Shown here piece by piece: positions 45,820-46,558 of a stretch of DNA of 64,000 nt (the stretch's first letter is position 1; every line of letters starts with the position of its first letter). Source of the stretch: Candidatus Norongarragalinales archaeon (GTDB taxonomy: Archaea > Micrarchaeota > Micrarchaeia > Norongarragalinales > Norongarragalinaceae). The notes under the pieces are model-generated. The model was not told where the DNA came from, ran no database searches, and saw only the letters and a program-made list of their open reading frames with translations. The DNA lies in assembly GCA_038884755.1 (NCBI GenBank), contig JAWABJ010000001.1, positions 576,001 to 640,000 on the forward strand. The letters are read 5' to 3'. The position numbers were made by a program, and so were the translations under genes.

Positions 45820-45923
45820 CCCCAAATTTTTTGCTGGCCAGGAGGAGTCATAAATACCTCTAGAAAGCAGGAGTATTAATTTTTGTCTAAGCGGGCGGCT
45901 TAGTAAAGGAAAGAGGTTTCCAA

Positions 45924-45944
45924 GGAGAAAACCACGTTTTCTCC
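45924..45944. terminator. Perfect 9-bp hairpin just 3' of the C/D RNA
   Basis: GGAGAAAAC-CAC-GTTTTCTCC; the function is inferred from position only. Confidence 0.45.
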
Positions 45945-45948
45945 CGGA

Positions 45949-46001
45949 TCAGACCGTCCGTCATTCATCATTCTGAGTCAGAAAGAATTCTAGGTCATCA
46001 T
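45949..46001 (-). ncRNA. Archaeal box C/D 2'-O-methylation guide sRNA
   Basis: Minus strand: ATGATGA (C) - cctagaattcttt - CTGA (D') - ctcaga - ATGATGA (C') - atgacggacggt - CTGA (D). Four perfect boxes with 13- and 12-nt guides in an ORF-free gap. Confidence 0.9.
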
Positions 46002-46025
46002 ACAAAGGAAAATGCTTTAGCGGGA

Positions 46026-46032
46026 TATTAAA
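46026..46032 (-). promoter_or_regulatory. Putative TATA box for the C/D sRNA
   Basis: TTTAATA on the minus strand, about 25 nt upstream of box C. Confidence 0.5.
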
Positions 46033-46111: not shown

Positions 46112-46558
46112 TCAGACTACCCTGACGAAACCGGTTTCGTTGTGCGCTAAGCCGGACAATTGAGAAATGTATCCGACGGTCACGGGAACCTGGTCTCCGA
46201 CTGCAAAGCTCGCTCCGCTAGTAACGCTGCAAGAGAATTTGCTGTTAGCAGCAACGCCGGTTGAAGGATTGCAAGTCGCTGCAACTCCGTCGATGGTAAC
46301 GCTGATGGAGTTCATGGTCGTTCCGGCCGCGTTTCCGAACACCACCTCGGCCGTAGTCGGGGCGGTGGTGGTGTAGTCAATCACGGTAAGCGTTGAAAAG
46401 CCTCCTGATTGCTTTCCTGCCGCGTACCTGTTCGGGTTGAATACGCCGAGATACCACAGTACTGCGGCGATGATTACAATCGCCAATACTGCCCAACCGT
46501 AAGTAACAAGATACTCGAGAGCAGCTTGTCCTTTCCTACTTTCTTTCATTACTTTCAT
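46112..46558 (-). CDS. Type IV pilin (class III signal peptide), likely major pilin
   Basis: RKG/QAALEYLVTYGWAVLAIVIIAAVLWYLGVFNP with Glu at +5; GAGGGG RBS. Confidence 0.88.
   Translation of the reverse strand: MKVMKESRKGQAALEYLVTYGWAVLAIVIIAAVLWYLGVFNPNRYAAGKQSGGFSTLTVIDYTTTAPTTAEVVFGNAAGTTMNSISVTIDGVAATCNPSTGVAANSKFSCSVTSGASFAVGDQVPVTVGYISQLSGLAHNETGFVRVV

Follow-up and report, generated by a model that had tools for sequence, protein, structure and literature searches.

A conserved archaeal box C/D guide RNA aimed at C1402 of 16S rRNA with a mismatch opposite the target nucleotide

The window analysed here, a stretch of 64,000 nucleotides from the genome of a Candidatus Norongarragalinales archaeon, holds on its minus strand a 53-nt box C/D sRNA (46001-45949) whose four boxes all stand at consensus. 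Read from the sequence, these are box C (ATGATGA, 45995..46001), box D' (CTGA, 45978..45981), box C' (ATGATGA, 45965..45971) and box D (CTGA, 45949..45952), with a spacer of 6 nt separating box D' from box C'. The 13-nt D' guide occupies 45982..45994 and the 12-nt D guide, ATGACGGACGGT, occupies 45953..45964; the latter is antisense to 16S positions 1398-1408 (E. coli numbering) and is conserved in relatives. On the same strand, a TATA-like motif, TTTAATAT (46025..46032), lies 31 nt upstream of box C and is predicted to act as the sRNA's own promoter, and in 18 of the 21 homologous loci examined a similar motif precedes box C by 27-34 nt. Directly 3' of box D, a predicted hairpin (45920..45948, minus strand, -15.4 kcal/mol) is followed by a pyrimidine-rich tract, the two together possibly representing the 3' end or a terminator; a similar hairpin also lies 3' of the sRNA at G000:C1:212715. 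The sRNA falls outside every reading frame of at least 100 aa and is located 111 nt downstream of a same-strand pilin-like gene (46112-46558, minus strand), a label taken from reading the gene's sequence, for which NCBIfam gave no match. We noticed that a pilin-like gene also stands just upstream of the sRNA in three relatives (G004, G013 and G023) and is absent from that place in most others.

We show that this 53-nt element is a real box C/D guide-RNA gene, as the first-pass annotation had proposed from its boxes. A strict four-box pattern recovered four RNAs in the 927-kb genome versus none in each of 20 block-shuffled genomes. Boxes C, D', C' and D follow in that order within the about 50-70 nt characteristic of archaeal box C/D sRNAs, and the antisense element upstream of box D is of the kind (9-12 nt, against rRNA or tRNA) that such guides carry. 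The genome also encodes the archaeal box C/D machinery, with the fibrillarin and Nop5 genes adjacent to each other and two L7Ae-family matches, either of which may be L7Ae proper. The sRNA is presumably expressed and assembled into an RNP. No Rfam family matched at its gathering score, the best being sR2 (24.9 bits versus 42). The three further C/D sRNAs, likewise unannotated, lie at G000:C1:212715(+), 272141(-) and 646434(-). Two of them have credible 23S targets, which we take to be the A-loop U2552 region, the P-loop G2251 region and others, and the one at C1:646434 has none. Separately, several normally conserved positions of the 23S peptidyl transferase region (G000:C1:681019-681166; L002:1532-1679, minus strand) differ from the Rfam archaeal consensus, which reads ACcUCGAUGUCgG versus ACAUCGCUAUCGG in this genome; the sRNA at C1:212715 has a D guide that fits this divergent version. 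Divergent peptidyl transferase centres have been described for Thermoprotei and Methanomethylicia (bioRxiv 10.1101/2024.11.12.623245).

Against the organism's own 16S rRNA, the D guide pairs at 10 of 11 positions across 1398-1408, and the sole mismatch is the adenosine at D+5 (45957, minus strand), which stands opposite C1402 (G000:C1:685528). The guide therefore lacks the Watson-Crick pair at N+5 that defines a canonical methylation guide. The first-pass annotation had recognised both the aim at C1402 and the exact place of the mismatch, and had deduced from them that this organism has U1402 and would mismatch 1391R/1406R-type primers. The genome's single 16S match reads ACCGCCCGTCA, hence C at 1402, and the site is canonical in all 44 order genomes that gave a match (of 68 searched, with a pattern that left 1402 and 1404 free and tolerated two further mismatches). 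It is also canonical in 5/5 and 4/5 further genomes of the class, the remaining one giving no match, and in 3/5 genomes of other phyla, the other two giving none. Because the gene is canonical at 1402, there is no U1402 in it and no primer mismatch to expect. For every state of the guide described below, the genomes that were checked have a canonical 16S; within Micrarchaeia, D+11 shows no covariation with 16S 1408, which is A throughout while D+11 varies. What the data show is instead the alternative that the annotation had also named, namely a guide that carries a mismatch at its target site. None of 22 contigs from one RNA run reached 99% likeness to the 16S, the contigs having come from other organisms. 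The 16S gene is itself interrupted near 1498-1500 by a group I intron (G000:C1:685236-685452; L001:1342-1558), and further introns lie within 16S and 23S. A T-rich/A-rich hairpin motif (42 matches) is common to many tRNA introns and short rRNA insertions, which suggests a small mobile intron-like repeat.

The second guide of the sRNA is an orphan in this order. Across 30 genomes, no position of the D' guide next to box C exceeds 0.57 bits, in a profile whose high D-guide values are partly fixed by the search pattern, and a comparison with the organism's own rRNA and tRNA returned no credible target. When the D' guides of 20 genomes were compared with about 1.9 kb around their own 16S site, only that of G009 beat 30/30 shuffles, with G270 close. 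Since the D' guide is unconserved in the order and without a credible target, the mismatched D guide is the working part that explains retention of the gene, and no other part accounts for the upkeep of this RNA, one of just four C/D RNAs detected. Elsewhere in Micrarchaeia, the D' guide at eight loci (L145, L146, L150, L160, L163, L165, L171 and L196) matches the 16S 3' end beside the anti-Shine-Dalgarno sequence, and the sRNA there is a putative dual guide spanning helices 44-45. As for other means of methylating C1402, neither RsmI nor a second intergenic 1402 guide was found in this genome, which is 93% complete, so that a gene could be missing.

The guide is present in 42 of 68 order genomes (controls 0), 38 of them with A at D+5 and four in which D+5 is G and D+7 is A. 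An invariant A at +5 was considered and abandoned as an artefact of patterns that fixed D+6, since it fell once the central triplet was freed. With the three central guide bases free, matches were obtained in 154 of 401 Micrarchaeia genomes (157 matches; reversed-pattern control 1), counts that concern only guides preceding a CTGA box and to which related genomes contribute non-independent observations. Among the 150 listed of these 157 matches, 72 were GGA (A·C1402), 63 GTG (U·C1403), nine AGG (A·C1404), four GAG (A·C1403), one GAA and one GCT, and none was the perfect GGG; the GCT match, the second in its genome, is probably an unrelated chance occurrence. The other seven lie in order genomes whose guides appear under other patterns as six GGA and one AGG. 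Overall, the mismatch of Micrarchaeia guides falls opposite C1402, C1403 or C1404, and its position switches within families: states are mixed inside families f12, f19, f30, f7 and f2 and inside genus g47, although switches seen in a single genome could reflect binning errors. Because the states mix in this way, the +5 form has traded places with forms in which +5 is a proper G-C pair and methylation is expected. GGG is one substitution away from each main state, and most switches need two substitutions, by way of a perfect form that was never observed or of a double mismatch observed a single time. Among clear copies, A is the only base other than G at D+5, a restriction that may reflect few independent origins plus transition bias, and U is common at D+6. 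In two genomes (G254 and G124; loci L167 and L168), a second conserved element combines an A-form core with a CTGA box and has no proper C' box; both genomes also carry a GTG-form guide.

The guide is unevenly distributed. Families f13 (0/78), f14 (0/64), f20 (0/9) and f23 (0/9) gave no match despite having fibrillarin; loss of the machinery as the cause in f13 and f14 was rejected, fibrillarin being present in 27/27 and 17/17 genomes, respectively. These class-wide guide and fibrillarin counts include one unpublished genome (G094 of f13, with fibrillarin and no guide match), on which the conclusions do not depend. A looser pattern recovered a further imperfect form (U·G1405 plus A·C1404) in 2/2 genomes of f14 and a credible guide in 0/3 genomes of f13. 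In Aenigmarchaeota, 7 of 151 genomes gave a match, four AGG and three apparently unrelated. The class containing Thermoproteales yielded 29 matches in 98 genomes, 26 with A at +5, two with a U·G wobble and one perfect. In another archaeal phylum (29 genomes), 13 of 18 matches were perfect, as were 8 of 64 in a collection-wide scan whose pattern restricted D+5 and D+7 to A or G and in which several matches labelled bacterial probably arose by chance. The data do not support a general rule by which GGG runs are avoided, since the wobble forms retain GGG.

Duplex energies show what the mismatch changes. At 37 °C, a perfect guide would bind the organism's own 16S with -23.0 kcal/mol, the observed single-mismatch forms with -15.8 to -16.8 kcal/mol, the double mismatch with -12.1 kcal/mol and the U·G form with -21.2 kcal/mol, in a model that scores A·C no differently from other mismatches. 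Other guides of this genome form four credible duplexes, which span -14.1 to -19.9 kcal/mol, each with a Watson-Crick pair at +5. A mismatch whose position wanders, together with the lack of any perfect copy among the listed matches, argues for selected weakening and against C-to-U editing. That a weaker duplex is a necessity is opposed by the perfect guides viable elsewhere (13/18 in the other archaeal phylum, 8/64 scan-wide, and the SNORD43 consensus). A further point against it, cited in PMC7089733, is that methylation levels in human cells are uncorrelated with duplex stability. Extensive guide-substrate pairing is reported to inhibit modification (PMC7229835). That effect reportedly concerns duplex length more than strength, and therefore serves only as an analogy for the weakening idea.

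The reading that we favour, with a probability of roughly 0.5, is that the mismatch weakens an over-stable, G+C-rich duplex and that the fibrillarin RNP still methylates C1402, perhaps only partly, via an A·C wobble. The sRNA would be transcribed from its own promoter and bind L7Ae, Nop5 and fibrillarin, and the resulting RNP would pair with 16S 1398-1408 before helix 44 closes. The mismatch would allow release, making it easier for the RNP to leave the helix 28/44 junction while the 30S subunit assembles; the methyl group would be transferred to C1402 through the A·C pair. When protonated, an A·C pair is similar to a G·U wobble. We infer that the weakening is a selected trait, which brings a duplex of -23 kcal/mol to about -16, and that the A·C pair still permits methylation. 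The exchange with G-C forms, the restriction to A at +5, the fixed register, the orphan D' guide and the presence of Cm at this site elsewhere all point to transfer of the methyl group. Specifically, Table 4 of PMC7005279 gives C1402 as 2'-O-methylated in all five of its organisms (E. coli, T. thermophilus, P. abyssi, yeast and human), and Cm1402 is present in N. equitans, for which PMC5389701 reports no guide candidate. In an in vitro half-complex, a +5 mismatch caused a "significant, although incomplete" drop and mismatches at positions 6-8 had no effect (PMC1635284); the half-complex is described in the same paper as methylating non-specifically, and therefore lends transfer only weak support. 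On the opposite side, a Watson-Crick pair at N+5 has been called essential and the mismatch of Pyrobaculum sR25 has been read as non-methylating (Lui et al., PMC6009581), and single mismatches were reported to reduce or abolish activity (PMC5558902). In a broader form, which we put forward tentatively, the guide may be a natural exception to the N+5 rule, in which archaeal fibrillarin methylates C1402 via A·C and the mismatch belongs to a set of interchangeable release devices (A·C1402, U·C/A·C1403, A·C1404, U·G1405), kept since a perfect guide would grip too tightly. If so, guides dismissed as non-productive and sites that seem to have no guide, such as Cm1402 of N. equitans, would deserve renewed attention.

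The strongest competing explanation, which we consider possible if somewhat doubtful, holds that the A·C pair blocks transfer and that the RNP is retained solely for holding or chaperoning 16S 1398-1408 while the small subunit assembles, so that C1402 lacks a ribose methyl. This is the published reading of sR25 (PMC6009581), and 16 such interactions were called non-productive by Dennis et al. (PMC4644070). The N+5 rule is itself backed by in vitro and in vivo work cited in PMC6009581, and the uniformity of the A form, in 26 of 29 matches of the Thermoproteales-containing class and 38 of 42 order genomes, fits a binding role. However, pure binding leaves unexplained why sister lineages have repeatedly switched to guides that restore G-C at +5, why neither U nor C ever occurs at that position, and why the register to box D has been kept, the fixed-register guide being found with nearly the frequency (42/68 genomes) of the 16S site (44/68).

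Specialised C/D RNAs guide cytidine acetylation in yeast. By analogy, the mismatch could expose a cytidine to a base-modifying enzyme, an explanation that draws on a tentative hm5C at the 1404 equivalent of P. abyssi (PMC7005279) and on a base modification "at, or adjacent to, C1402" in N. equitans (PMC5389701). We regard it as improbable, as the exposed position wanders among 1402, 1403 and 1404, which is unfit for one fixed base target. Editing that restores the pair, by turning C1402 into U in the rRNA or the guide A into inosine, seems to us very unlikely, because related guides mismatch C1403 or C1404 and often do so with a U that no C-to-U edit repairs: 63 copies among the 150 listed of 157 have U opposite C1403, beyond repair by either edit. 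Either edit would indeed mend the A·C pair, C-to-U editing of tRNA is known in Methanopyrus, and this genome has two deaminase-fold genes, although these resemble metabolic enzymes, the closest being ComEB/dCMP deaminase and RibD, with neither match reaching its curated cut-off. Nor do we give much credence to a true target in some other RNA with a perfect match. The 9-nt core does match perfectly at five other genomic places, but all five lie in long reading frames and the rRNA operon and tRNA genes contain none (the search covered the unspliced genomic sequence). The only perfect 11-12 nt match in the genome is the sRNA gene itself. Moreover, the GGA, GTG, AGG and GAG variants have only 16S as a common near-match; the Pyrobaculum guides carry C at D+11, where their own 16S has G1408. 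Finally, the guide sequence alone would allow a genomic U1402 or, as the annotation had also considered, an assembly error at the A, both of which can be practically discounted given the C1402 of the organism's own 16S and of all 44/68 order genomes with a match, and the recurrence of the A in 38 order genomes and six Pyrobaculum species.

C1402, a P-site nucleotide, carries a ribose methyl in bacteria, archaea and eukaryotes alike. If the mismatched guide methylates it, this would be a widespread natural exception to the central box C/D targeting rule, and genuine sites would be escaping the prediction tools. In the opposite case, entire archaeal lineages would retain an RNP for assembly alone and go without a near-universal modification. 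The +5 mismatch at the C1402 site is already in print for Pyrobaculum; new here are the census of mismatch states and the orphan second guide. Our literature search, which covered few subscription papers, found nothing on Micrarchaeota C/D guides and no description of a mismatch shifting between positions 1402-1405. The guide targets of Sulfolobus islandicus are reportedly the subject of a published study.

Several known systems act on the same nucleotide or region. SNORD43, presumably the human guide for 18S Cm1703, has the same antisense element. Its Rfam family (RF00221) matches the present sRNA weakly (14.7 bits versus a cut-off of 45), and its consensus differs in having a perfect G at +5 and a eukaryotic architecture. 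Bacterial RsmI/RsmH (m4Cm1402) modify the same nucleotide, but as protein-only enzymes (PMC11551388). Ignicoccus sR11, Sulfolobus acidocaldarius sR122 and Methanopyrus sR114 target the same region with G at +5, and their duplexes, read from the sequences, are also imperfect through a U·G wobble at 1405; unlike the sRNA described here, which uses box D and an A·C pair, they use box D' and a Watson-Crick pair at the target base. For Ignicoccus, sR11 is the proposed guide of Cm1402, a site where less than 50% is methylated (PMC5389701). The D' guide of N. equitans sR05, as given in the supplement of PMC4644070, resembles a 1402 guide short of one G.

The closest counterparts are Pyrobaculum sR25 (PMC6009581) and T. 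tenax sR135 (PMC4644070), whose 9-nt D-guide core is identical to that of the present sRNA, including the A at N+5. Each of the six Pyrobaculum sR25 RNAs in the supplement of PMC6009581 carries this A, and their target "16S C*1368", counted on the alignment of that paper, equals E. coli C1402. The interaction is listed there among conserved N+5 mismatches, and the supplement of PMC4644070 gives 35958 for T. tenax sR135 in the last column of its RNA-seq table, which we read as a read count. The relevant passages of both papers do not link C1368 to C1402, name the mismatched base or describe a moving mismatch. On the modification status of the site in Pyrobaculum, the main text of bioRxiv 10.1101/2024.11.12.623245 has no mention of 1368 or 1402. 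The sRNA of this study differs from sR25, which has a productive D' guide to C1328 (E. coli 1362; PMC6009581), in its orphan D' guide and its different phylum. Overall, it works like the D guide of sR25 but falls outside the sR25 family.
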